A DNA stretch of 64,000 nt from Candidatus Omnitrophota bacterium (GTDB lineage Bacteria; Omnitrophota; Gorgyraeia; Gygaellales; Profunditerraquicolaceae). Within the stretch, counting starts at the first letter, position 1; each line of letters starts with the position of its first letter. The notes beneath the pieces are model-generated. The model ran no database searches. It was not told where the DNA came from and saw only the letters and a list, made by a program, of their open reading frames with translations. A program made the position numbers and the translations under genes. This document shows, piece by piece, positions 6,226-58,174 of this stretch. Where the stretch lies: assembly GCA_041308845.1 (NCBI GenBank), contig JBFZAT010000026.1, positions 41,102 to 105,101 of the forward strand, read 5' to 3'.

Positions 6226-6252
6226 TTTATCTAACAAAAATAATTATTTTAC

Positions 6253-6281
6253 TTGACAAAATAAATTAGTCGTGGTAGTAT
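6253..6281 (+). promoter_or_regulatory. sigma70-like promoter TTGACA-N17-TAGTAT upstream of the MerR-like gene
   Basis: TTGACA 6253-6258, TAGTAT 6276-6281, AGGAGG RBS 6291-6296, ATG at 6304. Confidence 0.55.
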
Positions 6282-6303
6282 TGGAATGTCAGGAGGCGGG
6301 TAA

Positions 6304-6561: not shown

Positions 6562-6579
6562 ATTTTTTTTGGGCTTATG

Positions 6580-6606
6580 TTAGCACTCTAATGATTTAAC
6601 TGCTAA
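6580..6606 (+). promoter_or_regulatory. CIRCE-like inverted repeat (HrcA operator) TTAGCACTC-N9-AACTGCTAA
   Basis: Left arm matches the CIRCE consensus TTAGCACTC exactly. Right arm matches GAGTGCTAA at 7 of 9 positions. It lies between the MerR-like gene and hrcA. Confidence 0.6.
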
Positions 6607-6611
6607 TTTTA

Positions 6612-6639
6612 TTGACAAAATAGCAGATTGTGTTAAAAT
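6612..6639 (+). promoter_or_regulatory. sigma70 promoter TTGACA-N16-TGtTAAAAT for hrcA-grpE-dnaK-dnaJ
   Basis: TTGACA 6612-6617 and an extended -10 TGtTAAAAT 6631-6639, directly downstream of the CIRCE-like element. Confidence 0.6.
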
Positions 6640-6685
6640 TACGCTTCGGGTTTTAGCGTCGAGTAATCTAACAGAGGAGCAAAAG

Positions 6686-7420: not shown

Positions 7421-7424
7421 GCTG

Positions 7425-7976
7425 ATGGAAGAACATAAAAGTAACCAAAAAAATAATCAAGAGCATAAAGCCGCTCAAAAAAACGCAGAAGAAATTGTTA
7501 CCTTAAAGCAAGCGGAATATTTAGCGCTTTTGGAAGAGGTGAAAAAGGGTAAAGACAGCTGGGACCAGATGCTGCGCAACCAGGCTGATTTGGAAAATAC
7601 CCGTAAGCGCCTGGACCGGGAAAAGCAGGAGTTTATTAAATTTGCCAATGAGGGCCTGATTCTGGATTTGCTTAATGTACTGGATGATTTGGAGCGTACG
7701 GTGGATCTGGCCCAGACCGGTACAGAAGATCTATCCGCTTTTATAAAAGGGGTGGAAATGATCCTGGCGCATTTATACGAAATGTTAAAAAACCATGGGG
7801 TCAAACCGATCGAGGCGGAAGGCAAAATATTTGATCCTAATTTTCATGAGGCCTTGATGCAGGTTGAGAATAAAGAGTTAGCAGAGCATACGATTATTGA
7901 AGTATTGCAAAAAGGTTATTTAATTCACGGGCGGGTTTTAAGAACCGCTAAGGTCAAGGTTACTAAAAAACAATAG
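7425..7976 (+). CDS. grpE: nucleotide exchange factor GrpE
   Basis: GrpE family similarity and operon position. Confidence 0.9.
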   Translation: MEEHKSNQKNNQEHKAAQKNAEEIVTLKQAEYLALLEEVKKGKDSWDQMLRNQADLENTRKRLDREKQEFIKFANEGLILDLLNVLDDLERTVDLAQTGTEDLSAFIKGVEMILAHLYEMLKNHGVKPIEAEGKIFDPNFHEALMQVENKELAEHTIIEVLQKGYLIHGRVLRTAKVKVTKKQ

Positions 7977-8039
7977 GTTCTACACTTGGCGTCCAACTGA
8001 ATAGCGCCGGTGTTGTTTACGTAGACAAGGAGGTTTAAC

Positions 8040-9941
8040 ATGGCAAAGGTAATTGGTATTGATTTAGGTACATCTAACTCAGCAGCCGCGGTGATGGAAG
8101 GCGGCCGCCCGGTAATTATTCCTTCTGCTGAAGGGGCCGGAGTGGCCTCTGGGAAAGCCTTTCCGTCTTATGTTGCATTCACTAAAGATGGTCAGCGCTT
8201 GGTAGGTGAACCGGCTAGACGTCAGGCGGCGATTAATGCCGAAGGAACAATTCAGGCGGCTAAACGTAAAATGGGTACAGATTTTAAGTTCAAAGTTCAC
8301 GGCACAGATTACACGCCGCAACAAGTTTCGGCGTTTATCTTGCAAAAAATTAAGCAAGATGCTGAGGCTTATCTAGGGGATAAGGTAGAGAATGTAGTAA
8401 TTACCTGCCCGGCGTATTTCAATGATAATCAGCGTCAAGCAACTAAGGATGCCGGTGAAATTGCAGGTTTAAAAGTTTTACGTATAATTAATGAGCCAAC
8501 CGCAGCGTGTTTGGCCTACGGTTTGGAAAAAGCTGGTAAAGAACAAAGAATTATGGTTTTCGATTTAGGCGGAGGAACCTTGGATGTTACCATTATGGAA
8601 ATGGCCCAAGGCGTATTCCATGTTCAGTCTACCAGCGGAGATACGCAGTTAGGCGGGACCGATATGGACAGAGTATTGTTGGAGTATATTGTTGGCCAGT
8701 TTAAGCGGGAAACCGGGATTGATCTGATGAGTGATAAAATGGCGGTGCAAAGAGTTCGGGAAGCTGCAGAAAAGGCGAAAATTGAATTATCTTCTACCGT
8801 GAGCACGGATATCAATTTACCTTTTATTACTGCTGATTCTTCTGGCCCCAAGCATTTAACTATGAATATAACTCGGGCTAAGCTAGAAGATCTGGTGGCC
8901 CCGATTATTGAACGCTGTAAGCATCCGATGGAGCAGGCATTAAATGATGCCAAGCTCACCGCAAAAGAGGTGGATCGGATTATCATGGTTGGCGGGCCGA
9001 CCCGTATGCCGATTGTGCAGAAATTTGTAGAAGATTATGTTGGTAAAAAGATTGAGCGTGGTGTAGATCCTATGGAGTGTGTGGCCTTAGGGGCAGCAGT
9101 CCAGGCGGCAATTATCACCGGAGAAGTCAAGGATGTGCTGCTTTTGGATGTCACTCCGTTATCCTTAGGAATTGAAACCTTAGGCGGGGTGAATACAAAG
9201 TTAATTGAAAGAAACGCCTCTATCCCTACTCAAAAAAGCCAGGTATTCTCAACCGCTGCTGATAATCAGACCGCAGTGACTATCCGAGTTTTACAAGGGG
9301 AAAGACAATTGGCGGATGATAATGTAGAGCTGGGAAGGTTTGATTTGGTAGGGATTCCAGCTGCTCCTCGCGGGGTTCCGCAAATTGAAGTAAAATTTGA
9401 TATTGACCGGGACGGAATTGTGCACGTTTCCGCTAAGGATCTGGGTACTGGCAAGGAACAATCTATCCGGATCAGCGCTCCGAAGAAGCTATCTAAAGAA
9501 GAGATTGATAAAATGGTTAAGGATGCCGAAAAATTTGCTGCTGATGATGCCAAAAAGAAAGAAGAAATAGAAGCTATTAATCAGGCAGATAATTTGATCT
9601 ATGCTACCGAAAAATCATTGAAAGATTACGGTGATAAAGTTAGTCAGGCCGAACGTGCGGATATCGAAGCTAAGGCTAATGATTTAAAAAGCGCGATTAA
9701 AGATAAAAACATCGAGCGAATCAAGAAGGGCATGGAGGATCTCACTAAAGTTTCTCACAAGCTGGCCGAAGAGATCTATAAGCAGGCAGCTAGTGCCAAA
9801 CAGCAAAAGTCTCAAGGCTCAGCTGGGGAAGCTGCAGAGCAGAAACAAAACAATAGCGAAGAGGCCGCTGAAGCTGGTAAAAAAGACGAGGATATTATTG
9901 ATGCTGAATATAAAGAAGAGGATAAAGACGGTAAAAAATAA
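8040..9941 (+). CDS. dnaK: chaperone DnaK (Hsp70)
   Basis: Hsp70 signatures [16 protein letters not shown] and [11 protein letters not shown]-like, with an acidic C-terminus. Confidence 0.97.
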
Positions 9942-11247: not shown

Positions 11248-11514
11248 ATGCCTACTTATGAGTACGAATGTTTATCCTGCAAACATAAATTCGAAATTTT
11301 ACAGAGTATCACCGCCAAGCCTAAAACTAAGTGCCCGCATTGCGGTAAGAAGCTTAGGAAATTAATCAGTAGCACAGCCGGGTTTATCTTTAAGGGTACG
11401 GGTTTCTATGCCACTGATTACAAAAAGCCAAATAAATCGCCAGCTGCTTCTCCGGTTGGCGCATGTCCTAAAGCCAGCTCTGGTTGTGCTGGTTGTCCGG
11501 CCAAAAGTGAATAA
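11248..11514 (+). CDS. FmdB-family zinc-ribbon protein
   Basis: MPTYEYECLSCKHKFE...CPHCG matches the FmdB zinc-ribbon pattern. Extra Cys residues occur in the C-terminus. Confidence 0.65.
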   Translation: MPTYEYECLSCKHKFEILQSITAKPKTKCPHCGKKLRKLISSTAGFIFKGTGFYATDYKKPNKSPAASPVGACPKASSGCAGCPAKSE

Positions 11515-13811: not shown

Positions 13812-14915
13812 ATGGCCCAGGTAAGTTTAAGAGATGTCTGTAAGGTTTTTCCGGGTAATGTGACTGCGGTAAATAAAGTGAATTTAGGGATTGAAAATAA
13901 AGAGTTTATGGTGCTGGTCGGGCCCTCTGGTTGTGGTAAATCTACTACCTTAAGAATGATTGCAGGTTTAGAGGAAATCAGCTCTGGGGATGTTTATATC
14001 GGGAACAAACGGGTTAATGATGTCCCGGCTAAAGACCGGGATATTGCCATGGTTTTTCAAAACTACGCTCTTTATCCACACATGACGGTTCAGGAAAATA
14101 TGTCATTCGGTTTAAGGCTTAGGCATTTATCCAGGCAGGAAATTAACCAACGGGTAAATGAAGCGGCTGAAATTCTAGGAATTAAAAGATTATTAGACCG
14201 TAAGCCCCGCGAGCTTTCCGGAGGGGAGCGCCAGAGAGTAGCTGTCGGAAGGGCAATCGTCAGAAAGCCGATGGTTTTTTTATTCGATGAACCTTTAAGT
14301 AATTTGGATGCCAAAATGCGCGTGCAGATGCGCACCGAAATACATAAATTACATATTCGCCTGCAGACTACTATTATTTATGTCACTCATGATCAAGTGG
14401 AAGCTATGACGATGGGTGATCGTATTGCCGTGATGAAGGATGGATTGATTGCGCAACTTGGCGATCCAATCGATGTTTATGACCATCCGAAGAATAAATT
14501 TGTTGCTAGTTTTATTGGTTCCCCCCCGATGAATTTTATGCAGGGCAAAATTATTAAAAAAGAGGGGAAGTTATATTTTGATGAAGGTAAAATTCAGGTT
14601 AAGCTGGTAGAGGATATGTTCAAGAAGATGGCTAACTATGTTGAGCGGGAGGTTTTCTTTGGTATCCGCTCTGAAGATATCTATGATAAATTATTTGTTT
14701 CCCAGGCTCCTCCGGAAAATATTGTCCGGGTTAATTGCGAGGTTTTTGAGCCGATGGGGTCTGAGGTTTATCTCTACTTGAATACGGGTAAGCATACCTT
14801 TATTGCCCGGGTCAGCGCGCATGACCGTCCCAAAGTGAACCAGGAAATGGATGTGGTTTTTGATATGAGTAAGGTGCATTTCTTCGATAAAAATACCGAA
14901 GAAACAATCTGTTAA
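13812..14915 (+). CDS. ABC transporter ATP-binding protein, MalK/UgpC/MsiK type (sugar importer ATPase with C-terminal TOBE-like domain)
   Basis: Walker [13 protein letters not shown] signature LSGGERQRV, Walker [12 protein letters not shown], and a ~120-aa regulatory C-terminus. Confidence 0.85.
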
Positions 14916-14945: not shown

Positions 14946-16229
14946 ATGCAGCAAAATATTACCCGCAAAAAATTCTGGTTGTATTTATTATCCTTGGCCG
15001 GGTTGCTTTTGATCGGTAGTTTCGTTTTCTTCCCACAAAAAATTTCTCCGTTTCTTTTTCTCGTATTTATTCTGATCAACGTTTTTATTTCTATTTTCCT
15101 GCTTAAGTTTTATTCGGATAAAATTCAACTGAACCAGTCCCGCTGTGAACATGATCAAGAAGCAATCAATATTGTACAAGTCGTAAATAAAAAAAGCCAA
15201 GAGTATAATCTGGCTTTAAAATCGAAAATCCAGCGTTACAATAATTTAAAAAAATTAATCGAGGATCTTAACCTGAGCTTGAAGCTAGATATCTTAATCC
15301 GGGTTTTAAGCTCAACCGTTTACACGTTGATCTCCGATAGTACTGGTTTGGCATTATTTTATTTATTGGACAATCATCGTCAAAAGCTTAATCTGGTCTA
15401 TTCAATCAAAGAGCAAAGTGATCTGGTAGTATTGGCTAAAGAAGGGGATATTTTTGATCAATGGGTTTTGAGGCATTCTAGCCAGCTATTAATCGAAAAT
15501 CTAAAAAGTGATTTTCGTTTCGATGCCGGTAGCATCCGCAGTCAGGAAATGCGCGAAGTTGCATCTTTAATTAGTTCGCCGTTGGTCAGTAATAATTCTT
15601 TACTGGGATTGTTGCGGCTAGAAAGCAGAAATGATAATTTTTTCAACCAGGATGATCTGCGCTTTCTTTCTTTGGTAGCAGATTTAGGGTCAGTGGCTCT
15701 GGAGAACAGCCTACTTTTTCAGAAGACGCAGGATTTGGCTATCCATGATGACCTCACCGCTTTATACACCCGTAATTATTTTATTGATCGTTTACGAGAG
15801 GAGGCTAAGCGCTGCCAGCGCTTGGATCAGCATTTGTCGCTTATGATGATCGATATTGATTTTTTTAAACAGTACAATGATAAATTTGGTCATATTGCCG
15901 GAGACTTGGTGTTAAAACATCTGGGAATATTATTAAAGAATGAATTGGCGGCATATAATCCTTTAATCTGCCGCTTTGGGGGGGAAGAATTTTTAGCGAT
16001 GTTTTCCGGAATAGATAAAAAGAGATCGTTAACCATCGCGGAGGCTTTACGGCAGAGGATTCAAAAAGAAAAAATTACTCTGCGCCGGCAAGATACGCAG
16101 ATAACCGTTTCTATTGGAGTGGCTAGTTTACCTTTGGACACCAAAGATGAAGATGAATTAGTCCAGAAAGCGGATAAGTCGATGTACGCCGCTAAGGGAA
16201 AAGGCAGAAATCAAGTATGTTCAATATAA
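14946..16229 (+). CDS. membrane-anchored GAF-GGDEF diguanylate cyclase
   Basis: Two N-terminal TM helices, a GAF-like middle, and a GGDEF domain with an intact RFGGEEF active site. Confidence 0.8.
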   Translation: MQQNITRKKFWLYLLSLAGLLLIGSFVFFPQKISPFLFLVFILINVFISIFLLKFYSDKIQLNQSRCEHDQEAINIVQVVNKKSQEYNLALKSKIQRYNNLKKLIEDLNLSLKLDILIRVLSSTVYTLISDSTGLALFYLLDNHRQKLNLVYSIKEQSDLVVLAKEGDIFDQWVLRHSSQLLIENLKSDFRFDAGSIRSQEMREVASLISSPLVSNNSLLGLLRLESRNDNFFNQDDLRFLSLVADLGSVALENSLLFQKTQDLAIHDDLTALYTRNYFIDRLREEAKRCQRLDQHLSLMMIDIDFFKQYNDKFGHIAGDLVLKHLGILLKNELAAYNPLICRFGGEEFLAMFSGIDKKRSLTIAEALRQRIQKEKITLRRQDTQITVSIGVASLPLDTKDEDELVQKADKSMYAAKGKGRNQVCSI

Positions 16230-17212
16230 TTTTATATTTAATTATTACTTTGGCTATTAGTTTATTACTAAGAGAATTTTTTGTGAGCCAAATAAGAGAG
16301 CAACAGAGGCATGTCCTTGATTTAACCGATGAGCTTAAGCGTTCCAACCTTTCAAATGAACAATTAAATTTAGAAAATAGTTTACTGACTAAAAAGCTTG
16401 AAGACACATTAGCCCTTTATGAGTTAACTAAAGATATATGCCGGAGTTTAGATGAAGAAAAAGTGTTTGCTATTTTTAAGCAAAATTTAGATAAACATTT
16501 GGGGCCGGGTGATTACCGCTATATTAAAAATAGTTCGGATTTGATAAAATATACAAATTATACTGTTTTACCTTTAAAGTTAGAGGGTGATCAAATCGCC
16601 GGCTATTTGGCAGTGGATAGAATCTTAGAAACCGATAAGGAAAAGTTCGGAATTTTGGTCCAGCAATTTATGATTGGCTTAAGAAGGGCATTACTTTATC
16701 AAAAGGTCCAAGCTTTAACGATTATGGACGTTTTAACCGGGGTTTATTGCCGCCGGTACTTTTTAGAGCGTTTTAGCGAAGAACTTAAACGCGCAAAAAA
16801 GAATAAATTGGCTTTAGCTTTTCTGATGATTGATATAGATAATTTTAAGCAATTCAATGACCGTTACGGGCATCTGGTTGGGGATGCGATATTACGCCAG
16901 GTTTCTAAGACCATCCGGGATGCGGTCAGACAGATTGATTTTATCGGCCGTTACGGAGGTGAAGAAATAGTCGTAATTTTAGCCGAAACCGGTAGGGAGC
17001 AGGCTAATTTTGCCGCTGAGCGTATCCGGCAGGCAATTACTGCCGAAGTAATCAGGGTCTATGATGAAGAAATTAGAGTGACTGTTAGTATCGGGGTAGC
17101 TACTTTTCCGGACAATGCTCTGAATATGCAAAATTTGATTGAACTGGCGGATCAGGCTTTATATTTAGCCAAGGAAACCGGCAAGAACAGGGTGTGTTTT
17201 TCTCCGGCCTAA
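16217..17212 (+). CDS. GAF-like-GGDEF diguanylate cyclase
   Basis: N-terminal TM and coiled coil; GGDEF domain with RYGGEEI. Overlaps the previous DGC by 13 nt. Confidence 0.8.
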   Translation: MFNIILYLIITLAISLLLREFFVSQIREQQRHVLDLTDELKRSNLSNEQLNLENSLLTKKLEDTLALYELTKDICRSLDEEKVFAIFKQNLDKHLGPGDYRYIKNSSDLIKYTNYTVLPLKLEGDQIAGYLAVDRILETDKEKFGILVQQFMIGLRRALLYQKVQALTIMDVLTGVYCRRYFLERFSEELKRAKKNKLALAFLMIDIDNFKQFNDRYGHLVGDAILRQVSKTIRDAVRQIDFIGRYGGEEIVVILAETGREQANFAAERIRQAITAEVIRVYDEEIRVTVSIGVATFPDNALNMQNLIELADQALYLAKETGKNRVCFSPA

Positions 17213-17411: not shown

Positions 17412-18338
17412 ATGGTTAAAAGATTCATAATTGCAATTGATCTAGGTGGTACTAATCTAAAGTGTGCTTTATTGGATTCCAGGTTAAAGATTAAGGCCAG
17501 AAGTTCTTTAGACACAAAGAGTTTTAACAATAAGTCTAAGCTGATTACTGGGATAACCGATTCAGTAGCGGCTTTTATTCTAAATCAAGGATTAAATCGA
17601 TCGGTTATTGCGGGGGTAGGTATCGGCGTGCCTGGTCCAGTGAATACTTTAAAGGGCATTGTGCATTTTTTACCGAACATCCCAGGGTGGAAGGAAGTCA
17701 ATCTGAAAGCAATCTTAGAAAGAAGAACCGGGTTGCCGGTTTTTATTGATAATGATGCCAAATTAATGACTCTAGCTGAACATAAAACTGGAGCAGCCAG
17801 GAATTATAGAAACGCATTATGCTTAACTTTGGGTACAGGGGTTGGAGGAGGCTTGGTAATTAATAATTCAATCTACCGAGGTTCCGATAATGCTGCTGGT
17901 GAACTCGGGCATTTTCCGCTTAATCCTAAAGGTCCGCTTTGCGGCTGCGGGGCGCGGGGGTGTTTAGAAACTTATGTTGGTAACCAGCGCATTATTAAAC
18001 AGGCTCGCAAGCTGTTCGGTCCGCGTATCAGCTTAGAAAGAGTAACCCAAATGGCCGCAAAGAATAACTTTCAAGCTATAAAATTTTGGAGTCAAGTGGC
18101 TAGAAAACTGGGGATAGCTTTAAGCGGAATTATTAATTTGCTTAATTTAGATGTGGTGGTTATCGGCGGCGGGGTCTCGGGGGCCGGTAAAGTTTTATTT
18201 AAAAATATTAAAAGCACTGTTTTTCAGCAGGCTATGCGGGTGCAGGCCAGAAGAGTAAAGATTGTTAAGGCTAAATTAGGTAAAGACGCTGGTATTATCG
18301 GAGCCGGCTATTTAGTTAAGGAAAGGTTAAGTCAATGA
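17412..18338 (+). CDS. glk: ROK-family glucokinase
   Basis: [10 protein letters not shown]-terminal motif and the ROK zinc motif [10 protein letters not shown]. Confidence 0.8.
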
Positions 18339-18994
18339 AAATCTTTATCGATACAGCGAATGTTAACGAAATAAAGCAAGCCTGTAATCTAGGGTTAATC
18401 GACGGAGTAACTACTAATCCGACATTGATGGCTAAGGAAGGGCGGAATCCTGAGCAGGTGCTCAAGGAGATCTGTGCTTTAGTTAATGGCCCGGTCAGTG
18501 CCGAGGTGATCAGTTTGGATTCTGCCGGCATGCTCAAAGAAGCGCGCGGATTGACTAAGCTGGCCAAGAATATTGTTGTTAAAGTGCCGTTAACTATTGA
18601 GGGTTTAAAAGCTGTAAACATTTTAGCGGCCGAAGGTATTAAAACTAATGTTACGCTTTGTTTTTCCCCGGCCCAGGCATTATTGGTAGCTAAGGCTAAA
18701 GCAACCTATGTCTCTCCTTTTATCGGCCGCCTGGATGATATTGCCCAGGAGGGGATGCAGTTAATCGCGGATATTAAGAAAATATATATGAATTATGATT
18801 TCGAAACTCAAATTATCGTTGCTTCCGTGCGCAATCCGGTGCATGTAGTTAATGCCGCTTTAATCGGGGCGGATATTGCTACTATTCCTTATGCGGTAAT
18901 CGAACAATTGGTTAAACATCCTTTAACTGAAACTGGCATCAACAGATTTCTACAGGATTATAACAAAATTTCTCAATTGAATAATGATAAATAG
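18335..18994 (+). CDS. transaldolase / fructose-6-phosphate aldolase (short TalC/FSA family)
   Basis: 219 aa, [13 protein letters not shown]...GVTTNP, with the Schiff-base Lys region characteristic of the FSA/Tal subfamily. Confidence 0.8.
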
Positions 18995-29030: not shown

Positions 29031-30590
29031 ATGAAGAAAACCCCGCAGCAACCCACTAAAGATATGGAGAAACTGATTGCCCTGGGTAAACAAAAAGGTT
29101 TCCTTACTTACGATGAGGTTAATGATTTACTGCCGGAGGATCTTTCTAGTACCGTAGCTATTGATCACCTTTTTGAACTTTTGGGTAATGAAGATATCCA
29201 GGTGGTGGAAGGCGAAACTGATGCTGGTTTATCGGCTAACCGGGCTTCTCAGCAGGATAAGCAGAATTTAGTTCAACAGCGCGAAGAACTGTTGAGTGAA
29301 CAATTAAAAAGCGAAGAACGATTTATGCCTTTAGATGATCCGGTTAAAATGTACTTAAAGCAGATGGGTTCGATCTCTTTATTGAGCAGGGAGAATGAAA
29401 TTGAGCTGGCTAAAAAAATTGAGGATGCCGAAGATAAGTTTAAACGCGCCAGTTTAGTTACCAAATTTGTCAGAAATGAAGTTTTAGTGGTAGCTGCTAA
29501 TATCCTCGAGGATAAAATCAATATGGAAGAGGTGGTCAAGGAAGATATCCATATTAAAAAAAGTAGTTTATTGGGTAGATTTAAGCGAATTTTAGGGAAA
29601 ATTAAGCAAACGCGGAGTGAAAGTAACGCGATAAATTTAATTTTACAGCTTAATTTCACTACTTCGGTTATTGAGGCTGCGGTACGTAAATTAAGCCTGC
29701 AGCTACGGGAGTTGGAGCATCAGCGCCGGATGAATAAACGGGCTAACCTGCGCAGCCGGCAGATATTAAAAGATTTTGGGCAGCCCTACAGTAAAATCAA
29801 AGAACAAATAAAAGTTATTAAATCCGCCCATCTTAAATTCAGCCGGACAAAAAAGAAGTTAGTAGAAGCCAACCTTCGTTTAGTAGTGAGCATTGCTAAA
29901 AAATATACTAACCGTGGGCTTTCTTTTCTAGATTTAATTCAGGAAGGTAATATTGGTTTGATGCGGGCGGTAGAAAAATTCGAATATAAGCGTGGTTATA
30001 AGTTTTCCACCTACGCTACTTGGTGGATCCGGCAGGCGATTACCCGTTCTATCGCTGACCAGGCCCGGACTATCCGAATACCTGTACATATGACTGAGAC
30101 AATTAATAAAATCATCCGTTTCTCACGTGTTTTCGTACAAAAGAATGGCAGGGAGCCTACCCCGGAAGAGATCGCGCATAAAATGCGTTTTCCTCAAGGC
30201 AAGATTAAGTCTATATTAAAGATTGCCCAGGAGCCGATTTCCCTGCAAATGCCTATTGGTGATGAAGGAGATACGCATTTCGGTGATTTTATACAGGATA
30301 AAAAAGCAGTTTCCCCGGCTAATGAAACAGTGCGTTCAATGTTAAAAGATGAAATGAATTCAGCCTTGGGCACTTTAACCGAACGAGAGAAAAAGATTTT
30401 AGTTTTACGTTTTGGTATTCAAGATGGGTCTGCGCGTACCCTAGAAGAAGTCGGTAATGTTTTTAAGGTCACCCGGGAAAGGGTCAGGCAGATTGAGGCT
30501 AAAGCTTTAAAGAAACTCAGGCATCCTTCACGCTCGCGCCGCTTAAGGACGTTTATGGATATGACTTTAGCGCACCAGAGGGAATATTAA
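29031..30590 (+). CDS. rpoD: RNA polymerase sigma factor RpoD (sigma70)
   Basis: Regions 1.2 to 4.2 are present, including the [19 protein letters not shown] rpoD box. Confidence 0.95.
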
Positions 30591-30715: not shown

Positions 30716-33700
30716 ATGGAAAATCATAAAAAACAAAATTTTGAAACCACTTTAGCCAAGCTGCGTAAGGTAGAATTTCAGCAGAAAGCAATCTTGGATA
30801 ATATTCCGGATATCGCCTGGCTTAAAGATCTTCAAGGTAGATTTATTGCGGTCAATCAGCCTTTTGCTAAAGCCTGTGGTTTTAAAGTCGGAGAAATTAT
30901 TGGTAAGACGGATTTGGAAATCTGGCCTAGAGAATTAGCGCTTAGTTATATTGCTGATGACCGGGAGGTCATCGAAAGTAAAAAACGTAAGTGTGTTCAG
31001 GAACGGTTGATGTATCAGGAAGGTGGCGAGCAGTGGATTGAGACTATCAAGACCCCGTTTTTTGATGATCACGGAGATGTCATCGGCACTACCGGGATTG
31101 CCAGAAATATTACTTTGCACAAAAGTGAAGCCGAAAGGTTAAAAGAAATCCGTGCTGAGCTTGAACTTAGAGTTAAGGTGCGCACTTCGGAGCTAGCCAG
31201 TTTTAACGAAGCCTTACGTAAAGAAATGCGGGTAACTCAAGAAGCTCAAAAAGAACTCGCCAGCCTGGGCAACTTTCTTACTAATGTTTTTAATAGTATC
31301 CAAGACGGGTTATCGGTTCTGGATAATAAGATGAATATTGTGCGGGTTAACCCGACAATGGAGAAGTGGTATGCATTTAACATGCCGCTTATCGGAAAGA
31401 AATGTTATCAGGCTTATCATCAGCGCAGCAAACCTTGCGAAGTTTGTCCGGTAGCGGAAACTTTCAAGACGCATCAAGCTGCGCATTTTATTAATCCAAT
31501 GGATGATAAGGATGGAAAAACAATCGGATATTTTGATTTATATAGTTTTCCCATGTTTGATGAAAATACTAAAGAATTAATCGGAGTGATTGAATATGTA
31601 CGAAATATCACCGAGCAAAAATTTGCCCAGGAGGCTTTACGATTAAGTGAAGAAAAATTTAAAAGCATCTTTGAATATTCTAATCTTGGTTTATTAGTTT
31701 TAGATGCGCAAACCCGCAAATTTATTTTATGCAACCGTATAATTCAAAAGATGCTCGGTTATAGGCAAGAAGAGCTTCTACAGATGAAAGTCTCCGATAT
31801 TCATCTTCAGAATGATTTATCCCAGCTAAACGCTCATTATGAGGGCTTAAAAAATAGCGGCCAAGTTTATTTACATTTCTTCCCGGTTAAAAGAAAAGAT
31901 GGCGGTATTTTTTATGCCGATATTAATGCTACCAAGCTGGTTTTAGATGGTAAGGAATGCGTTTTAGCTAATTTTGAAGATGTTACCGCGCAGAAGGAGA
32001 ATGTAGATAAATTAGCCAGGGCTGAAGAGCGCTACCGTTTAATTACGGAACAAACCGGCCAGTTGATTTATGATCTAGATATGTCAACCCAAAAAATTAT
32101 CTGGGGCGGATTAATTGAGAATATTACCGGCTTTAGCCAAGAGGAGTTTAGTCAGGTTGATCTTAAGCGTTGGGAGGAGATGATCCATCCCGATGACCGT
32201 AAAAACGCTGTGGATTTATTGAATCAATCTATAAAATCCGGCCAAGCATATAAGGCGGATTACCGTCTTTTACATAAAAACGGTTCATATATATATATGG
32301 GTGATCGGGGTGCATTCTTAAGGGATAATAATGGTGTCGTTTATCGTATGTTAGGCTGTATGGAAGATGTTAGTAAAAACCTAGAATATGCCAATGAGCT
32401 TAAGATATATCGGGAGAAGTTGGAAACATTAGTTGAACAGAGGACAAAATCTTTGGAATTAGAAATTGCTACGCGTAAAGAAATGGAAGAAAAAGCGGGT
32501 ATTTTACATCAACAGCTGGAGTTTATCTTAGGGGTTACTAAAACCGGGCTGGATATTATTGATCAAGATTATAACTTACGTTATGTTGATCCGGCTTGGG
32601 CGAGTAATTACGGTGAATGGAAAGGCAAGAAGTGTTATGAATATTTTATGGGCCGTAATAGTTCCTGTGCCAACTGTGCTATCGAAGAAGCTTTTAGAAC
32701 CAAAAAAACCGTAATCAGCGAGGAGATTTTAACCAGAGAAGGCAATCGGCCGATTCAGGTCACAACGATACCTTACCAGGATAAGAATAATGATTGGTTG
32801 GTAGCCGAAATTAATCTCGATATTACTCAGAAAAAAATAATTGATGAAGAGCTCAAGCGTTACCGTAATGATTTAGAGGCCCTGGTCGGTGAACGGACTC
32901 GTGATCTTTTGGAGGAAACTAATCGTTATAAAGCTGCGGAATTGGAGAAAAGTAAGCTTAATCGAGAGCTAATTAAGGTTAACGAAAAATTAAAAAGCAT
33001 TTCACTGATTGACGCGCATACGGGTTTATACAACTATCGTTATCTGCAGGAAGCTATTGAAGTGGAGTTTCATCAAGCCAGAAGGTATGCCCAAAATTTA
33101 TCGATTATCATGCTGGATGTAGATTATTTTAAATCGATTAATGATGTTTACGGAATAGTTTTCGGAGACCTGGTTTTAAAGCAGCTGGCCAAACAACTGA
33201 AACGTATGGTGAGGCGTTACGATATCCTTGTCCGTTACAGCGGCGAGGAATTTATTATCATCTCTCCCCGCTTAAACCGCAGTACGGCTTTTAATATGGC
33301 TCAAAGATTATTGGATTCTTTAAATTTCATTAATTTCGGTAATAAAAAACATAGTGTTAAATTAAAAATCAGCCTTTCGGTTGTTTCTTTTCCGGAAGAC
33401 CGAGCAAAAAACGGCATGGATTTAATTAATTTAGCCGATTTATTATTAAGCCGGGCTAAAGAAAGCGGTGGTAACCGCGTCTATTCATCTCTGGATATGA
33501 AAAACTCGCTGACTAAAGGGATGGAAAGAATTTCTAAATCCGTGGGAATAAAAACTTTAAAGAATACCATTAGTAAGCTGAACAAGCAATCTAAGCAAGG
33601 GCTTAGTGAATCAATCTTTGCTTTTGCTAAGACCCTGGAATTAAAAGATCATTATACTGGTGAACATGTTGAAAACACGGTGCATTTTGCTACCGGTGTG

Positions 33701-34156
33701 GCTAAAGAACTGAATCTGCCGAAAGAGGAAGTAGAACTAATTAAGCAGGCGGCTATGCTGCACGACCTGGGTAAAATCGGTATCAGCGAAAATATCCTGC
33801 TTAAAAAAGGAAAGCTTAACAAAAAAGAATTCGAAGAGATAAAAAAACATCCGCAGATTGGTGCTGATATTATCCGTCCGATCCAATTTTTGCACGACCT
33901 GATCCCTTTTATTTTTTATCACCATGAGCGTTGGGATGGTAAAGGTTACCCTAGTGGAATTAGGGGTGAAGACATCCCTTTGGGTGCCCGAGTAATCGCG
34001 ATTGCTGATGTTTATCAAGCTTTGATTAGTGATCGGCCGTATCATAAAGCATTTACTAAGAGCGCAGCCATTGAAATCATCAAAAAAGCCTCCGGAACGC
34101 AATTCGATCCCCGTATTGTCAGCGTTTTTCTTAAGGTGATCGGAGAAGAAAAGTAA
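30716..34156 (+). CDS. multidomain c-di-GMP signalling protein: about 5 PAS domains, a GGDEF with a degenerate site (SGEEF), and an HD-GYP phosphodiesterase
   Basis: Repeated PAS cores; GGDEF region RYSGEEFIII; C-terminal HD-GYP motifs HD..GK and HHERWDGKGYP. Two PAS domains carry a C-X10-C-X2-C triad. Confidence 0.85.
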   Translation: MENHKKQNFETTLAKLRKVEFQQKAILDNIPDIAWLKDLQGRFIAVNQPFAKACGFKVGEIIGKTDLEIWPRELALSYIADDREVIESKKRKCVQERLMYQEGGEQWIETIKTPFFDDHGDVIGTTGIARNITLHKSEAERLKEIRAELELRVKVRTSELASFNEALRKEMRVTQEAQKELASLGNFLTNVFNSIQDGLSVLDNKMNIVRVNPTMEKWYAFNMPLIGKKCYQAYHQRSKPCEVCPVAETFKTHQAAHFINPMDDKDGKTIGYFDLYSFPMFDENTKELIGVIEYVRNITEQKFAQEALRLSEEKFKSIFEYSNLGLLVLDAQTRKFILCNRIIQKMLGYRQEELLQMKVSDIHLQNDLSQLNAHYEGLKNSGQVYLHFFPVKRKDGGIFYADINATKLVLDGKECVLANFEDVTAQKENVDKLARAEERYRLITEQTGQLIYDLDMSTQKIIWGGLIENITGFSQEEFSQVDLKRWEEMIHPDDRKNAVDLLNQSIKSGQAYKADYRLLHKNGSYIYMGDRGAFLRDNNGVVYRMLGCMEDVSKNLEYANELKIYREKLETLVEQRTKSLELEIATRKEMEEKAGILHQQLEFILGVTKTGLDIIDQDYNLRYVDPAWASNYGEWKGKKCYEYFMGRNSSCANCAIEEAFRTKKTVISEEILTREGNRPIQVTTIPYQDKNNDWLVAEINLDITQKKIIDEELKRYRNDLEALVGERTRDLLEETNRYKAAELEKSKLNRELIKVNEKLKSISLIDAHTGLYNYRYLQEAIEVEFHQARRYAQNLSIIMLDVDYFKSINDVYGIVFGDLVLKQLAKQLKRMVRRYDILVRYSGEEFIIISPRLNRSTAFNMAQRLLDSLNFINFGNKKHSVKLKISLSVVSFPEDRAKNGMDLINLADLLLSRAKESGGNRVYSSLDMKNSLTKGMERISKSVGIKTLKNTISKLNKQSKQGLSESIFAFAKTLELKDHYTGEHVENTVHFATGVAKELNLPKEEVELIKQAAMLHDLGKIGISENILLKKGKLNKKEFEEIKKHPQIGADIIRPIQFLHDLIPFIFYHHERWDGKGYPSGIRGEDIPLGARVIAIADVYQALISDRPYHKAFTKSAAIEIIKKASGTQFDPRIVSVFLKVIGEEK

Positions 34157-34334: not shown

Positions 34335-34450
34335 TTTATATAATTATTTGCGCATAGCGGCCACCCGGACCAAAAGGGGTGCGGGGAAAAGATCCCCGCG
34401 AATTCGGGGTAACAGCAAGCGCCATAGGGGCAGAGCCATTTGGAAATATA

Positions 34451-34478
34451 GTCCGGGGTTCGAATCCCTGTAGGCCAA
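34451..34478 (+). repeat. degenerate direct repeat of the tRNA(CAT) 3' end (T-arm plus acceptor 3' strand) with no matching 5' half
   Basis: GTCCGGGGTTCGAATCCCTGTAGGCCA here versus GTCCGGGGTTCGAGTCCCTGTGGGCCC at 34308-34333. No complementary 5' acceptor strand or anticodon arm could be built. Confidence 0.5.
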
Positions 34479-34570
34479 TTTTAGAATGCCATCCGGGGCA
34501 TGGTGTGGCCTGCGAACCTGGCAGGAATATACAGTTTAGTTTTGACAAGGTGGTTAAATAAAACGGTTAT

Positions 34571-46930: not shown

Positions 46931-46962
46931 TCTCATACCAAGCAAACGCTTTCTTTTTTAGG

Positions 46963-46990
46963 CCAAATCGTATTGATTTGGTATTTTTTT
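46963..46990 (+). terminator. rho-independent terminator after plsY
   Basis: Perfect 7-bp stem CCAAATC / GATTTGG with loop GTATT, followed by TATTTTTTT. Confidence 0.7.
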
Positions 46991-47000
46991 AGAGTCATAC

Positions 47001-47345
47001 TTGAGTATGAGAAATTTACTCTATAAAAACCTGACTTTTCCTAAACGCGGCCGTAAAATTATTGCCAGCAGCGAGGTAGCTGATAAAGAAGGTATCCATA
47101 GCGTGGTGCGCCGCCATTTTACTTACATGGTTAAGCCGGTTCCCAGAACAGGAGTAATTTCAGCGCAACCGTATCTATATGTATTAAAGCAAAGGGATAA
47201 CAAACAAAGACGTGAACATTTTTTTTGTAAAGTTAAAGGCAGCGTGCTGGCGGTAAGCCATGGAAACTTCTTTCAAGTTCTATTTGTGCACACTTTGACT
47301 ATTGATTTGACTTCAGCGGTCAAGCTCAGCGAACAGCTTGGTTAA
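47001..47345 (+). CDS. hypothetical protein (doubtful), 114 aa, TTG start
   Basis: ORF only. It has no recognisable motif, starts inside an inverted repeat right after the plsY terminator, and lies in a convergent intergenic region. Confidence 0.2.
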   Translation: MSMRNLLYKNLTFPKRGRKIIASSEVADKEGIHSVVRRHFTYMVKPVPRTGVISAQPYLYVLKQRDNKQRREHFFCKVKGSVLAVSHGNFFQVLFVHTLTIDLTSAVKLSEQLG

Positions 47346-47357
47346 TCCTGCCCGTAG

Positions 47358-50300
47358 TTAGCTTAAATAAATATCGATTTTTTTAATTTCCCGCGATCTG
47401 ACTGCCTGGGCATAAGGTGGAGGAATTACCGCGCCCTCTAACTGCACGGATTGTTTTTTATCCTGGAGTACGATCCTGTTGATTATGGCGGCTTGCCGGC
47501 CGAAAGTGTTTTTTCTTTTAGGGTTATGGTAGGTTACCCGGACCTGACTTAAAAAATTAAAAGTATATTCCCCGTTTTTGTTAAATAACCAGCCGGGTAA
47601 ATTTGGCTTAAAAATTAAGTTTAGCTGTCCGGTTTTGTTTAGGGTAAAAGGAGTAATCCCTGCGTGCATGATTAACCAAATCTGCAAGAATTCAGCAGTT
47701 GAACCGGAAAGCCTGGCTACAAACCCATTGCCATGCAATTTTTTGTCTGCGAATGCGCTGCTGACTAAAAAAGAAGAATTTTCTAGAATACTGCGTCCGT
47801 AGACCTGCGGGTTCTGAAAAGGGATTAAAACTTGTTTAAATTCGGTATAAAATTCTTCGACCAATCCAGCCTTGAGCAGTTCTAGAATATACTTGTACTC
47901 CATATGCAACCAAATAGATTCGTTCTCCAGCCAGCCTGGGCTAAAGATTCTGCAACGGCCGATTTCTTCCGGCATGCTGGTTAGAGAGGCGGTTACTTTA
48001 TACATTTTAAGTTTTTTATCAAAAAGCGCACTGTTTTTGGTTGCTTGGTGCAGGGCTAATTTCTGTTGCGGTTCATCTGCCAACCTTAATGCATGCATCT
48101 GGCCCTCCAGGAATAAAGGGAGGGGTTTTTGAATGAATTTTTTAGGCTTTAAAAAGTGGTCCCGGATTAAATCATACTCTACAACTTCATTAATAAAATA
48201 TGAATGGTAAACTCCTTTTTTACTGTCGAGTGCCTTATTTAGGCCTGCTTCTACTTTGTTCAGCCCCGCTTCAAGAAAAAGGTTTAGTTTATCTACAGAA
48301 AGATTTAATAGGCGTCCGGAAAACCCCAAACGAGTTTTGTGCCGGAAATTTTCTTTCAAGGTATTGCTTTTATCCCAATAAGAAAAAGCTGTATCTGTAA
48401 ATATCGGCAAGAGTTCTTCAATAAACACCGCTATTTCTTCGGGCATTTCTACTTCTCCGGATGCGGAGAGCTTTAAAGCTTGTTTAGTCATTTTAAGCAA
48501 GCGCTTTAATTCAAATGTTTCGCAGGCCGATGATCCAAAAAGAGCTGGCAATCCGTTAAGCGAATCAAACCAGTTTGGTTTATTAGCCTCCATTTCAATG
48601 CCCACTCCGCAGGCATCCAGTGAAGCCAGTTTATTCACTGCTAAGCATAAAAGTTTTACCATTAGGCTGGTATAATAGATCTGGCCTTCTCCGTTCAGCA
48701 TTCTGAGAGCATGCGGGTTAACCTTGCGCCGGCGCAGGAGCTCTTTTTTATGGCTGTCAAGCGTAAGGGAATGTAGTTGACGAGGTTGTCCGTTATACAA
48801 TATGTATTTTTCACTACGCGGTCGAACGGTCTCGGGATTATCAAAAAACGAAAAAACTTTCCGGGTCCAAAAGAGTTCTTTTGCTTTTTCCGGGAATAAC
48901 TCTAGGTAGCGATCAATTAAATCTAGATTATACGTCCAGTGGTCAGTCCAGAACCCTTCTCCGTGTTCAGCCTCGTGAATTTTTAAGGCATGAGAAAGGA
49001 TAATATCCAGGAACTCATCATAGGAGGAGTTGATTTTAATTTTGTTTTCTTCGATAAAAAAGATCAGCTCGCCCGGGCTAAAAGGCTTTTTCAGAAAAAC
49101 GCAAAGTTTATCCTTATCGGTTTCTTGGCTGACGGTTTCCAAGAGTTCATGCTTATCCAGATTTTCCTCAACCAGAAAACTCTCCGGTTTGACCACTAAG
49201 GGATTGAAGCCATCCGCTTGGATTAAATTCATAAAGAAAACAATGTTTTCATCTTGAATATCCGGATTAAACCAGGGGTCATTACGGCGGTTTTGGTTGG
49301 TGTCCCGGTAATTGCCGTTGCCTTGGGAAAGATAAGTAGGCTGTAACTGAAATTTATTATAATCTCTTTCCAGGTCTCCGTGTTTACGCGAATAAAGATA
49401 AAAAACTACCCCGGATTTAAAAACTTCAGGATATCCTCCGCGCATAATGTTGTCCAGGTAAGTCTGGCCGGAGTATAAGTTGAATTCAGCGCTGCTGCTT
49501 TTAGTTAAAATATTATTTTTTAAACTTTCAATGAGCGCCAGATTTTGCAGCGCTTTTTCTTCGATATACCCGGGGGCAATAATTTTTTTTACCGATTGAT
49601 TTAAGGTCTCTGGATTACGTGCCTGTCCGCTTACTGCGTAAAATAGCTCCGCCTGGGCAGGTTTTAATTCTAAATTTAATAAGAGCAAAGCACTGGGAGT
49701 TTTGCTTTGCTTGAGTTGCTGTCTGGGATAGGAAAATTTATTAGTAGAAAGAAAAGTGGCTGGATAAGAAAAATCGGTCACCGGACCAAAGACTGCTTGT
49801 GGATCAACAATTGGTTTTATTATTAGATTTTTCCCTCTTTGCTTGCTGAATCCCAGGTAGAAGTTTCCTGGTTCAATATGCACTACTTCCGGACGGTCAG
49901 CCGGATCAACCTGGAGCCTGTAAAAGGGCACGGAGTTTTCTAGGTTGTCAACTGTCATCCAGGCTTCAATGGTGCGCCCGAGTTTTTTAAGGAAGAAGTT
50001 ATTTGTCCCGAAGGGGACGGTTTGCACTAGCCCGTCGATTAGCTGTAGGGATTTGATTTTCCTGCCGGTATTTTCGATACTTACTGTCCGGCTTAAGCCG
50101 GCGTAGTTATCATTAGGGATATTAAAATATCTTACTTGGATTTTTATCCCTAGAGTATGATTTTCTTCTTCCAAGATTAATTCTTGCGAAGCGATGCGCA
50201 GGCGGTTGCTGATTTGGTATTTAAGATTATTATAGCCATTATGGAAAGGTTCATAATAAATCGGTTCGGATTTCTTGTCCTGGAGTTTAATGAATGTGCG

Positions 50301-50555
50301 GAAGCCATGGCTTGTAGATAATTGCCAGGCCTTATTGGCCGGAAAGAATTCTAGGATCGCATGGTCTTTGTCTTTAGTTCCGAAGCTGCAAATACATTGA
50401 CCGCGGTTGACATAGAAGACCCACATCGGGATCCCGTATTTACCGGCTATTCCCGGGAAGAAATTAGCAAAGGGCTTGGCGTAATTATAATTTTCAATAA
50501 CAAATTCACCTTGCGGGTTGAGATAATATTTGGGTTTTAATTGTCGGTTTGGCAT
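47358..50555 (-). CDS. GH94-family glycoside phosphorylase-like protein (size and architecture resemble 1,2-beta-oligoglucan / cellodextrin phosphorylases)
   Basis: 1065 aa. The N-terminal beta-sandwich resembles the cellobiose-phosphorylase N-domain (EFVIENYNYAKPFANFFPG versus the EYVITTPHTPYPWINYLG pattern). An (alpha/alpha)6 region carries a G.G.RD.NQ phosphate-site-like motif (QGNGNYRDTNQNR). It is the only minus-strand gene in the window. Confidence 0.55.
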   Translation of the reverse strand: MPNRQLKPKYYLNPQGEFVIENYNYAKPFANFFPGIAGKYGIPMWVFYVNRGQCICSFGTKDKDHAILEFFPANKAWQLSTSHGFRTFIKLQDKKSEPIYYEPFHNGYNNLKYQISNRLRIASQELILEEENHTLGIKIQVRYFNIPNDNYAGLSRTVSIENTGRKIKSLQLIDGLVQTVPFGTNNFFLKKLGRTIEAWMTVDNLENSVPFYRLQVDPADRPEVVHIEPGNFYLGFSKQRGKNLIIKPIVDPQAVFGPVTDFSYPATFLSTNKFSYPRQQLKQSKTPSALLLLNLELKPAQAELFYAVSGQARNPETLNQSVKKIIAPGYIEEKALQNLALIESLKNNILTKSSSAEFNLYSGQTYLDNIMRGGYPEVFKSGVVFYLYSRKHGDLERDYNKFQLQPTYLSQGNGNYRDTNQNRRNDPWFNPDIQDENIVFFMNLIQADGFNPLVVKPESFLVEENLDKHELLETVSQETDKDKLCVFLKKPFSPGELIFFIEENKIKINSSYDEFLDIILSHALKIHEAEHGEGFWTDHWTYNLDLIDRYLELFPEKAKELFWTRKVFSFFDNPETVRPRSEKYILYNGQPRQLHSLTLDSHKKELLRRRKVNPHALRMLNGEGQIYYTSLMVKLLCLAVNKLASLDACGVGIEMEANKPNWFDSLNGLPALFGSSACETFELKRLLKMTKQALKLSASGEVEMPEEIAVFIEELLPIFTDTAFSYWDKSNTLKENFRHKTRLGFSGRLLNLSVDKLNLFLEAGLNKVEAGLNKALDSKKGVYHSYFINEVVEYDLIRDHFLKPKKFIQKPLPLFLEGQMHALRLADEPQQKLALHQATKNSALFDKKLKMYKVTASLTSMPEEIGRCRIFSPGWLENESIWLHMEYKYILELLKAGLVEEFYTEFKQVLIPFQNPQVYGRSILENSSFLVSSAFADKKLHGNGFVARLSGSTAEFLQIWLIMHAGITPFTLNKTGQLNLIFKPNLPGWLFNKNGEYTFNFLSQVRVTYHNPKRKNTFGRQAAIINRIVLQDKKQSVQLEGAVIPPPYAQAVRSREIKKIDIYLS

Positions 50556-50579
50556 CTGTAAAATTAAGTTAATTGAATT

Positions 50580-50608
50580 ATTTTACACATTTTATTCCGA
50601 TTTGTCAA
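50580..50608 (-). promoter_or_regulatory. sigma70 promoter TTGACA-N17-TAAAAT on the minus strand for the GH94-like gene
   Basis: The reverse complement of 50603-50608 is TTGACA and of 50580-50585 is TAAAAT. The start codon at 50555 gives a very short leader. Confidence 0.55.
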
Positions 50609-50661: not shown

Positions 50662-50690
50662 TTGACTTTTGGGAAGAAAGGTGTTAAAAT
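50662..50690 (+). promoter_or_regulatory. sigma70 promoter TTGACT-N17-TGtTAAAAT for gatCAB (divergent from the GH94 promoter)
   Basis: TTGACT 50662-50667 and an extended -10 at 50682-50690; GGAGGGG RBS before the ATG at 50711. Confidence 0.6.
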
Positions 50691-57862: not shown

Positions 57863-58174
57863 ATGACCGAAGAAAAAATGCTCACCGTCAGGGATGTTGC
57901 GGTTATGCTCGGAGTTACGGAGAAAGATGTCTTAGACCTTACCGAGCAGGGTAGGATTCCGGGGTATAAGGTGGGAGGAGTATACCTAAGGTTTAAGAAA
58001 GATCAAGTAGAGCAGTATAAAAAACAGCAGAGCCTGTTAGATCCTAAACCGGTTAAACCCGGGGCTGACGGTTTGGGCAATAAAGTTTTCGATTTTTTTT
58101 ATTTTAACGATTTTTATATTTTCGCTTTAATTTTAATTTGCCTTTTAGGGTATCTGGTTTACCGGGGTTTATAG
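57863..58174 (+). CDS. small HTH_17-like protein with a C-terminal transmembrane anchor
   Basis: LTVRDVAVMLGVTEKDVLDLTEQGRIPGYKVGGVYLRFKKDQV HTH, then the hydrophobic helix FYIFALILICLLGYLVY. It lies 4 nt after the bactofilin gene. Confidence 0.5.
   Translation: MTEEKMLTVRDVAVMLGVTEKDVLDLTEQGRIPGYKVGGVYLRFKKDQVEQYKKQQSLLDPKPVKPGADGLGNKVFDFFYFNDFYIFALILICLLGYLVYRGL

Follow-up and report, generated by a model that had tools for sequence, protein, structure and literature searches.

Glycoside phosphorylases of clan GH-Q are found in the families GH94, GH149 and GH161. GH161 is represented by PapP from Paenibacillus polymyxa ATCC 842, THA_1941 (TaBGP) from Thermosipho africanus and OcP1 from Ochromonas, as well as by the structures 9qqk, 9sr2, 9h8v and 9gy9, and its characterised enzymes act on beta-1,3-glucans (PMC6484121, PMC8140972). 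The family was defined with an identity range of 31-58% (31-41% for bacterial members), and bacterial GH161 proteins were mostly encountered in Firmicutes, where their genes lie in carbohydrate-utilisation clusters together with ABC-transporter components and glycoside hydrolases (PMC6484121). GH149 is known from EgP1 of Euglena gracilis and from Pro_7066 (PDB 6hq6, 6hq8), and GH94 includes the laminaribiose phosphorylase PsLBP (6ggy) as well as cellobiose, chitobiose, cellodextrin and beta-1,2-oligoglucan phosphorylases. Here we analyse a 64,000-bp stretch of contig JBFZAT010000026.1 from a Candidatus Omnitrophota bacterium, called the window in the following, and in it a gene on the minus strand (47358..50555) which an initial annotation, made from the letters of the sequence alone, had described as coding for a GH94-like glycoside phosphorylase. 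The open reading frame (ORF) starts with ATG, comprises 3,198 nt and encodes a protein of 1065 amino acids (122.8 kDa) with no signal peptide. On the level of sequence, this protein is assigned to GH161, and its kinship to GH94 would be at the clan level only. We consider it quite probable that it is a cytoplasmic GH161 phosphorylase of a large orthologous group, vertically inherited in Omnitrophota, for which the phosphorolysis of beta-1,3-gluco-oligosaccharides is predicted. In contrast to the clustered GH161 genes of Firmicutes, the window gene stands alone among housekeeping genes and in opposite orientation to them.

Family assignment of the phosphorylase

When compared to the sequences of solved structures, the window protein matched the GH161 chains 9qqk_A (E = 4e-234) and 9h8v_A (E = 2e-233) with about 783 bits and with query residues 17-1062 aligned. 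The entry 9qqk is annotated as a GH161 phosphorylase in complex with a beta-1,3 glucooligosaccharide. Similarly, OcP1, the founder of GH161, whose sequence was taken from the supplement of the family-defining paper (PMC6484121), aligned over its full length (query 12-1064 with OcP1 87-1221) at 34% identity and with 566 bits. This value lies within the 31-41% range of bacterial members and therefore places the window protein inside GH161 by the similarity that delimits the family. As among the known GH161 proteins of about 1040-1230 amino acids, the sequence is collinear over the full length. In contrast, the best GH94 chain, that of PsLBP, scored only 22.6 bits (E = 2e-4) and aligned in the catalytic region alone (residues 617-919), and the GH94 chain 4zle scored 12 bits. 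With the exception of a spurious WG repeat, no Pfam family was matched at E <= 1, and none was matched by any of 120 close homologues either. GH94 membership is thus not indicated, as the protein has no Pfam GH94 domain and its nearest relatives lie elsewhere.

The sole match in NCBIfam was the distant GH149 model NF058639 (E = 4e-34), with 117.6 bits as compared to an equivalog cut-off of 1150. GH149 has the clan, the substrate class, the size and the multi-domain layout in common with the window protein and gave the second-best fold match; however, the score far below the cut-off and an identity of about 14% in the structural alignment made with Foldseek (template modelling (TM) score of about 0.5) indicate that the protein is not a member of GH149.

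An AF2 structural model was built on a shallow alignment of 34 orthologues and is beta-rich from residue 85 to 312, mainly helical from 315 to 965 and again beta from 970 to 1064, although with a mean predicted local distance difference test (pLDDT) value of 65.6 and active-site loops below 50. The GH161 architecture consists of four parts, an N-terminal beta-sandwich, a linker of helices, a barrel of the (alpha/alpha)6 type and a jelly roll at the C-terminus. In a Foldseek search of the PDB, the top matches of the model were the GH161 structures 9gy9, by its annotation a beta-1,3-glucan phosphorylase of bacterial origin, and 9qqk (E of about 1e-54, TM 0.62-0.64). The order of families was GH161 (1e-54), GH149 (1e-23), laminaribiose phosphorylase of GH94 (2e-18) and, last, cellobiose and cellodextrin phosphorylases of GH94 (about 1e-13).

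From the length of the protein it had been proposed that it belongs to the GH94 subgroup of about 1100 amino acids that contains beta-1,2-oligoglucan and cellodextrin phosphorylases, which would let it act on beta-1,4 or beta-1,2 glucans, for example in periplasmic glucan turnover. The RD..Q motif, the Asp of the catalytic W-x-D loop and a Glu/His pair do align with the GH94 enzyme PsLBP, which shares the clan, the length is similar to that of the subgroup, and the orthologues carry the name 'cellobiose phosphorylase' at NCBI. However, against the full-length GH161 match of 783 bits stand the short GH94 match in residues 617-919 and the lack of any Pfam match described above; the TM values of GH94 structures were 0.3-0.5. 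Cellodextrin phosphorylase structures reached TM values of 0.32-0.36 (E of about 1e-12), and beta-1,2-oligoglucan phosphorylase was absent from the top 50 matches of Foldseek. Also, a protein with no signal peptide has no direct access to the periplasm. Initially, the GH161 enzyme of T. africanus had also passed for a cellodextrin phosphorylase, until beta-1,3 linkages were shown in its products (PMC8140972), and the name 'cellobiose phosphorylase' on the orthologues repeats this confusion. It is GH94, not GH161, that holds the proposed beta-1,2 and beta-1,4 specificities; given the assignment to GH161 and the beta-1,3 activity of characterised GH161 enzymes, the specificity guessed from the length falls. 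The placement in GH94 is therefore largely refuted by sequence and fold ranking, and we regard it as very improbable. What holds of the initial annotation is that the gene product is a large glycoside phosphorylase of the inverting kind and belongs to the superfamily around GH94 (clan GH-Q), whereas the family is a different one (783 versus 22.6 bits).

Active site and predicted reaction

The predicted catalytic loop of the window protein is encoded by the codons for W662-F663-D664 (48564..48572, minus strand) and was recognised by alignment to known W-x-D loops. In the alignments, D664, the predicted general acid, falls on the Asp of a WND loop in OcP1, of a WYD loop in 9qqk and of a WND loop in the GH94 enzyme PsLBP. 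In THA_1941 the corresponding loop is W623-N624-D625, with D625 as the catalytic residue (bioRxiv 10.1101/2025.04.05.647330). W662 and D664 were invariant in 34 of 34 Omnitrophota sequences, and W-x-D was kept in all 120 close homologues. Also invariant in the 34 sequences were R390, R397, R417, D418, Q421, E877, H884, S928 and S950, all of which are identical in 9qqk and OcP1. Alignment to a GH94 member, which had been suggested as a check of the catalytic Asp and the phosphate-binding residues, placed E877 and H884 as well as D664 on their counterparts in PsLBP, the former two on its Glu and His.

The invariant residues lie in the active-site motifs PGWLENESIWLHMEYKY, ENSSF and GFVARLSGST, which read the same in the solved GH161 protein and were kept in all 120 close homologues; besides the Asp of W-x-D, the features shared with GH161 systems include SR.HGD.ERDYN, YRD..QNR, GWLENES.W.H, ENSSF and RLSGST. 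The motif G.G.RD.NQ, on which the initial annotation had relied, is a genuine active-site RD..Q motif, but its true spelling is G412-N-G-N-Y-R417-D-T-N-Q421, that is G.G..RD.NQ, and thus one residue longer. The distances between E877 and S928 and between S928 and S950 (51 and 22 residues) are exactly those of E840-S891-S913 in THA_1941, and the spacing of the arginines is 27 as compared to 28 residues. Residues were mapped with the OcP1 sequence from the paper's supplement, with printed PDB alignments and with motif spacing. From this mapping, W662 and E877 are predicted to hold the glucose in subsite -1, and R390, R417, H884, S928 and S950 to hold the phosphate.

The middle residue of the loop varies. 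In 110 of the 120 close homologues it is Phe, and in the remaining 10 it is Tyr. In a set of 150 representatives from the wider family, Asn was counted 56 times, Tyr 49 times and Cys 28 times. These groups may mark subfamilies of GH161; the Cys and Phe groups are apparently uncharacterised. The Tyr in the solved complex with a beta-1,3-oligosaccharide indicates that an aromatic residue in the loop is compatible with beta-1,3 binding.

The same variation could be taken for a sign that the Omnitrophota proteins combine a GH161 fold with a diverged specificity, be it for another linkage, for a mixed-linkage or decorated glucan, or for an oligosaccharide from the cell wall of prey or host. F663 takes the place of an Asn which in THA_1941 was modelled to form a hydrogen bond with glucose (bioRxiv 10.1101/2025.04.05.647330), and the family splits into WND, WYD and WCD groups in the numbers given above. 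PapP and Pro_7066 accept beta-linked disaccharide acceptors with other linkages (PMC6484121). Also, the Omnitrophota clade has no laminarin-utilisation neighbours, and non-syntenic relatives sometimes have a GH5 or a polysaccharide deacetylase gene upstream. However, the remaining motifs of the -1 subsite and of the phosphate site are identical to those of 9qqk, which binds a beta-1,3 oligosaccharide and carries Tyr as a near-equivalent aromatic residue, WYD is present in 10 of the 120 members of the clade itself, and all GH161 enzymes characterised to date are beta-1,3-specific in the bond that is made or broken (PMC8140972). Such a divergence seems unlikely to us.

Reversible phosphorolysis of beta-1,3 bonds is instead predicted from PapP, from TaBGP and from the 9qqk ligand complex (PMC6484121, PMC8140972). 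In the proposed reaction, of the type EC 2.4.1.97, beta-1,3 gluco-oligosaccharides or glucans would lose glucose units at their non-reducing end to inorganic phosphate. The mechanism would be an inverting single displacement, in which D664 would protonate the glycosidic oxygen while phosphate would attack C1, and the expected products are alpha-D-glucose-1-phosphate and a glucan that is one unit shorter, as in the family (PMC8140972, PMC6484121). Glucose-1-phosphate would enter glycolysis via phosphoglucomutase at no cost of ATP, and residual glucose could be phosphorylated by a ROK glucokinase-like protein that is encoded elsewhere in the window (17412-18338). In the Omnitrophota classes Gorgyraia and Velamenicoccia, the capacity for sugar transport, glycolysis and acetogenesis is encoded by most genomes (PMC10066038), and an ATP-free entry of glucose-1-phosphate would fit a sugar-fermenting, energy-limited lifestyle of Omnitrophota.

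A hydropathy scan of the phosphorylase revealed no signal peptide, no hydrophobic N-terminus and no membrane segment, with 19-residue maxima of 0.84 in the first 60 amino acids and of 1.57 across the protein. The enzyme should therefore work in the cytoplasm, and the turnover of endogenous periplasmic glucan that had been considered before is unlikely as its direct role. As source of the glucan, imported beta-1,3-oligosaccharides from the environment or from prey seem to be the simplest, and an endogenous reserve polymer may be another.

Several points weigh against the prediction of a beta-1,3-active GH161 phosphorylase. Identities to characterised or solved members are modest, with 34% for OcP1 and about 42% for proteins that score like 9qqk. 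The AF2 model, at the pLDDT values given above, is of moderate quality only and usable for fold ranking. The mapping onto R345, R373, E840, S891 and S913 of THA_1941 was made by motif identity and spacing and not by direct alignment, and the Phe in the catalytic loop of the window protein stands where THA_1941 and OcP1 have Asn and where 9qqk has Tyr. Next to the phosphorylase gene there is no transporter, glucanase or phosphoglucomutase gene, neither here nor in the syntenic relatives, and most neighbours in non-syntenic relatives are housekeeping genes that bear no relation to it (isochorismatase, NAPRTase, DinB, PurK, M48 peptidase); the exceptions are a GH5, seen upstream once, and polysaccharide deacetylases, seen upstream twice. 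With such a lack of sugar-metabolism neighbours, the genomic context gives no support to the substrate.

Genomic locus and inheritance

The gene-strand bias of the window is extreme, as 56 of the 57 protein genes lie on the + strand together with the two tRNAs and the RNase P RNA. Coding sequence makes up 95% of the window. Among the ORFs of at least 120 amino acids in the window, that of the phosphorylase is the only one on the minus strand which is not shadowed within a larger ORF of the + strand, and when the intergenic gaps were scanned for minus-strand ORFs, no credible small gene appeared. The initial annotation was therefore right in recognising a sole minus-strand gene of 1065 codons as real. 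In all syntenic relatives, the neighbour genes are equally co-oriented. GC skew is positive throughout the window, which indicates that the + strand acts as the leading strand and that the phosphorylase gene is oriented head-on to replication. It is flanked on the left by a gene for a CDP-alcohol phosphatidyltransferase (pgsA-like) and by plsY and on the right by gatC, gatA and gatB; with this, our annotation of the neighbours agrees with the plsY and gatCAB genes named earlier.

As had been noted before, the gene is preceded by a sigma-70-type promoter (50580..50608, minus strand) that stands back-to-back with the promoter of gatC. It consists of a -35 element TTGACA (50608-50603), a 17-nt spacer and a -10 element TAAAAT (50585-50580), and matches 11 of 12 consensus positions; no other site of the window fits the pattern exactly. 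The divergent gatCAB promoter (50662..50690, + strand) reads TTGACT-17-TAAAAT with a TG before the -10 element, is conserved in relatives and lies 53 bp from the -35 element of the phosphorylase promoter. By number alone, the matches are statistically unremarkable (2 observed in 64 kb with at most one mismatch, 0.97 expected). However, the only divergent intergenic region holds both of them, and their hexamers and spacing do not vary among five genomes with protein identities of just 65-74%; it is this location and invariance that make the promoter credible. The window also contains, at 29031-30590, a gene for a sigma factor of the RpoD type. We read the phosphorylase gene as a monocistronic unit of the lagging strand with its own promoter, as the initial annotation had done.

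Downstream of the -10 element and ahead of the start codon lies the block AATTAACTT (50566..50574, minus strand), which occupies the invariant alignment columns 137-145. It is not over-represented in the window, as might be the case for a recurring operator. The region is predicted to hold the transcription start and a short leader, and the block might serve as an operator, as initial transcribed sequence or as a translation signal. The leader (50556-50579, minus strand) is short and AT-rich, and no Shine-Dalgarno sequence was found upstream of the ATG at 50555. By contrast, gatC is preceded by a strong GGAGGGG.

Downstream, the unit is bounded by a convergent gene of the + strand (47007..47345) for a basic protein of 112 amino acids, which stands outside the enzyme system and whose stop codon is 12 bp apart from that of the phosphorylase gene. 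Each syntenic locus has a 112-aa gene call in the corresponding position, and the orthologues are 62-67% identical and constant in length, with 29.6, 16.4 and 60.3 differences per pair at codon positions 1, 2 and 3, respectively. The same call in all syntenic relatives, the constant length and the third-position substitutions argue for a real gene. All of the 204 homologues of the protein belong to Omnitrophota. It had been supposed that the phosphorylase gene ends in a convergent terminator opposite that of plsY. However, the hairpin of plsY (46962-46982) has its T-run on the + strand only and is separated from the phosphorylase stop codon by about 375 bp and by the 112-aa gene. Also, on the minus strand 3' of that stop codon, a pattern scan for intrinsic terminators, RNA folding (z = -0.06) and an inverted-repeat search were all negative. 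The convergent terminator thus has to be given up. An RNA-family search of the gap between plsY and the phosphorylase gene gave no match.

In many syntenic relatives, a gene for a protein of about 930 amino acids is present between the 112-aa gene and the phosphorylase gene (for example L004:11221-14007 and L005:11297-14092, both on the minus strand). This protein has one N-terminal TPR repeat, a faint match to an outer-membrane beta-barrel and no NCBIfam match. The gene is missing from the window and from its closest relatives (L007-L009, L015 and L019). Its presence in some and its absence from other syntenic loci suggest that the junction is a site of gene gain or loss.

In the relatives whose phosphorylases are 74, 72, 70 and 65% identical to that of the window, the gene order is lepA-lepB-pgsA-plsY-112-aa gene, followed by the opposite-strand phosphorylase gene and by gatCAB-ctpB onwards, and locus and orientation are the same in L001-L006. 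A wider sample consisted of the 80 best loci among GTDB species representatives, almost all of which carry the label Omnitrophota. Of the loci that could be assessed, 34 of 67 had gatC as the adjacent divergent gene and 23 of 63 had plsY convergent downstream. The conserved arrangement covers essentially all orthologues of more than about 56% identity. In more distant Omnitrophota the gene was found in other contexts and was co-directional with its neighbours.

With a GC content of 0.413, the phosphorylase gene lies exactly at the mean of the other 56 genes (0.413, standard deviation 0.023), and in four relatives its GC content follows that of the host from 0.41 to 0.51. In its synonymous codon usage, however, the gene is the strongest outlier of the window (z = -8.6). 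At fourfold degenerate sites, the other genes, with the + strand as coding strand, have more G than C (.26 versus.21) and more T than A (.37 versus.16). The phosphorylase gene, whose coding strand is the minus strand, has more C than G (.31 versus.22) and about as much A as T. G thus exceeds C on the same physical strand in both cases, and the preference for T at third positions is cancelled by the opposite strand bias, so that the deviation in codon usage is explained as a strand effect. These skews fit a coding preference that is shared by all genes plus a strand effect of reversed sign (G+T-rich leading strand), as is expected for a long-resident gene of the lagging strand. Also in the relatives, the orthologues have a GC skew that is lowered when compared to their neighbours.

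The initial annotation had taken the gene for an insertion between plsY and gatCAB, which would imply a recent horizontal acquisition, and had suggested codon usage and GC content as well as a search for orthologues in another, syntenic context as tests. For an acquisition speak the position as the sole minus-strand gene among 57 and the outlying codon usage. Of these, the codon usage is indeed deviant but, as just described, with the fourfold skews of a long-resident lagging-strand gene, and the GC content is the same as that of the neighbours and tracks the host. As for the context, the relatives of 65-74% identity share an identical locus order, position and orientation are kept in dozens of Omnitrophota species and down to about 56% identity, and linkage to gatC was present in half of the assessable species representatives. 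In addition, neither repeats nor mobile-element genes were found to flank the gene, and its promoter is conserved. Taken together, the synteny, the GC content that tracks the host, the strand effect in the codon usage and the lack of flanking repeats or mobile elements argue against a recent insertion, which we think can hardly have taken place. The arrangement appears to be ancestral to a large sub-clade of Omnitrophota, with an opposite orientation that is old and conserved.

Elsewhere in the window, a gene for a MalK/UgpC-type ABC ATPase (13812-14915, + strand) codes for a protein with ABC_tran, OB_MalK and TOBE domains that scores above the UgpC subfamily cut-off. As had been stated before, it is an orphan: its neighbours are DUF1015, an AccD-like carboxyltransferase and two GGDEF proteins, and there is no permease or binding protein nearby. 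In Firmicutes, GH161 clusters contain ABC importers without their ATPase (PMC6484121); the orphan ATPase would be compatible with this pattern but is no proof of it. About 2.5 kb beyond it, the ROK glucokinase-family gene (17412..18338, + strand) overlaps a transaldolase/FSA gene, and the pair spans 17412-18994. The earlier remark that no sugar kinase accompanies the phosphorylase gene thus applies to the genes that adjoin it, but not to the window as a whole.

Some further features of the window were observed. Three proteins of cyclic-di-GMP signalling are encoded within 20 kb (14946-17212 and 30716-34156, + strand), one with GAF and GGDEF domains, one with GGDEF, and one of 1146 amino acids with multiple PAS, GGDEF and HD-GYP-type HD domains. 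A non-coding gap of 235 bp (34335-34569) between tRNA-Met and tRNA-Val had no match in Rfam at permissive thresholds and contains only implausible ORFs on either strand. Three larger intergenic gaps are filled by small ORFs of the + strand at 6304-6561 (85 amino acids), 11248-11514 (88 amino acids) and 57863-58174 (103 amino acids). The second of these starts with MPTYEYECLSCKHKFE, which resembles a zinc ribbon, and the third is located where relatives have an HTH_17 gene.

Distribution in Omnitrophota and meaning for the family

Matches to the phosphorylase comprised more than 5,300 clusters at 90% identity. The best 120 clusters were 60-78% identical, and those with a name belong to Omnitrophota. 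An exhaustive search of representatives at 50% identity gave 633 matches at E <= 1e-30. The nearest relatives outside the Omnitrophota clade, among them proteins from Margulisiibacteriota and Melioribacteraceae, were 45-50% identical. A literature search found no discussion of a GH161 gene in Omnitrophota.

An unusual version of the gene was observed in Candidatus Omnitrophica UBA6233. On contig DJWJ01000026.1 (L053:1-15189), one frame is open over 15.2 kb and runs off both ends (more than 5,046 amino acids). It contains a GH161 module at 6001-9189 that is 57% identical to the window protein and keeps all catalytic motifs, PNWYDALNG among them. Upstream of the module, the frame also contains an APH-like kinase domain and an HMGL-like/homocitrate-synthase-like domain, and the 2,013 amino acids downstream have no Pfam match. 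Two contig-end fragments, P0121 (L055) and P0271 (L068), are of the same kind, and the metagenome-assembled genome of UBA6233 also has a normal stand-alone copy of the phosphorylase gene (L021). An intact GH161 module may have been recruited into a giant multi-enzyme protein in UBA6233, or else the assembly may be chimeric.

The long retention in a housekeeping locus, the near-consensus promoter and the possible recruitment into the giant protein are hints that GH161 could be, rather than an accessory enzyme for the scavenging of sugars, a core, vertically inherited enzyme of carbon and energy metabolism in Omnitrophota, which would cycle an intracellular beta-1,3-glucan reserve or harvest glucan from prey or host. 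We put this forward as a speculative and rather doubtful extension. In heterokont algae, GH161 enzymes are thought to cycle the reserve polymer chrysolaminarin.

In summary, chemistry and fold of the predicted enzyme are already known, and what is described here is not a new mechanism but an uncharacterised clade of a known enzyme family. The locus can serve as a cautionary case, in which a lone gene on the opposite strand with deviant codons mimics an insertion and yet appears to be ancient, the signal being an effect of the replication strand. The annotation as cellobiose phosphorylase would be corrected to a GH161 enzyme of beta-1,3-glucan, which alters the substrates to be inferred for these uncultivated, ultra-small bacteria. 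The range of GH161 would be widened by an Omnitrophota clade of at least 120 clusters at 90% identity from dozens of GTDB species, and Omnitrophota GH161 becomes a candidate marker for the use of beta-glucan in the communities of anoxic groundwater and sediment.

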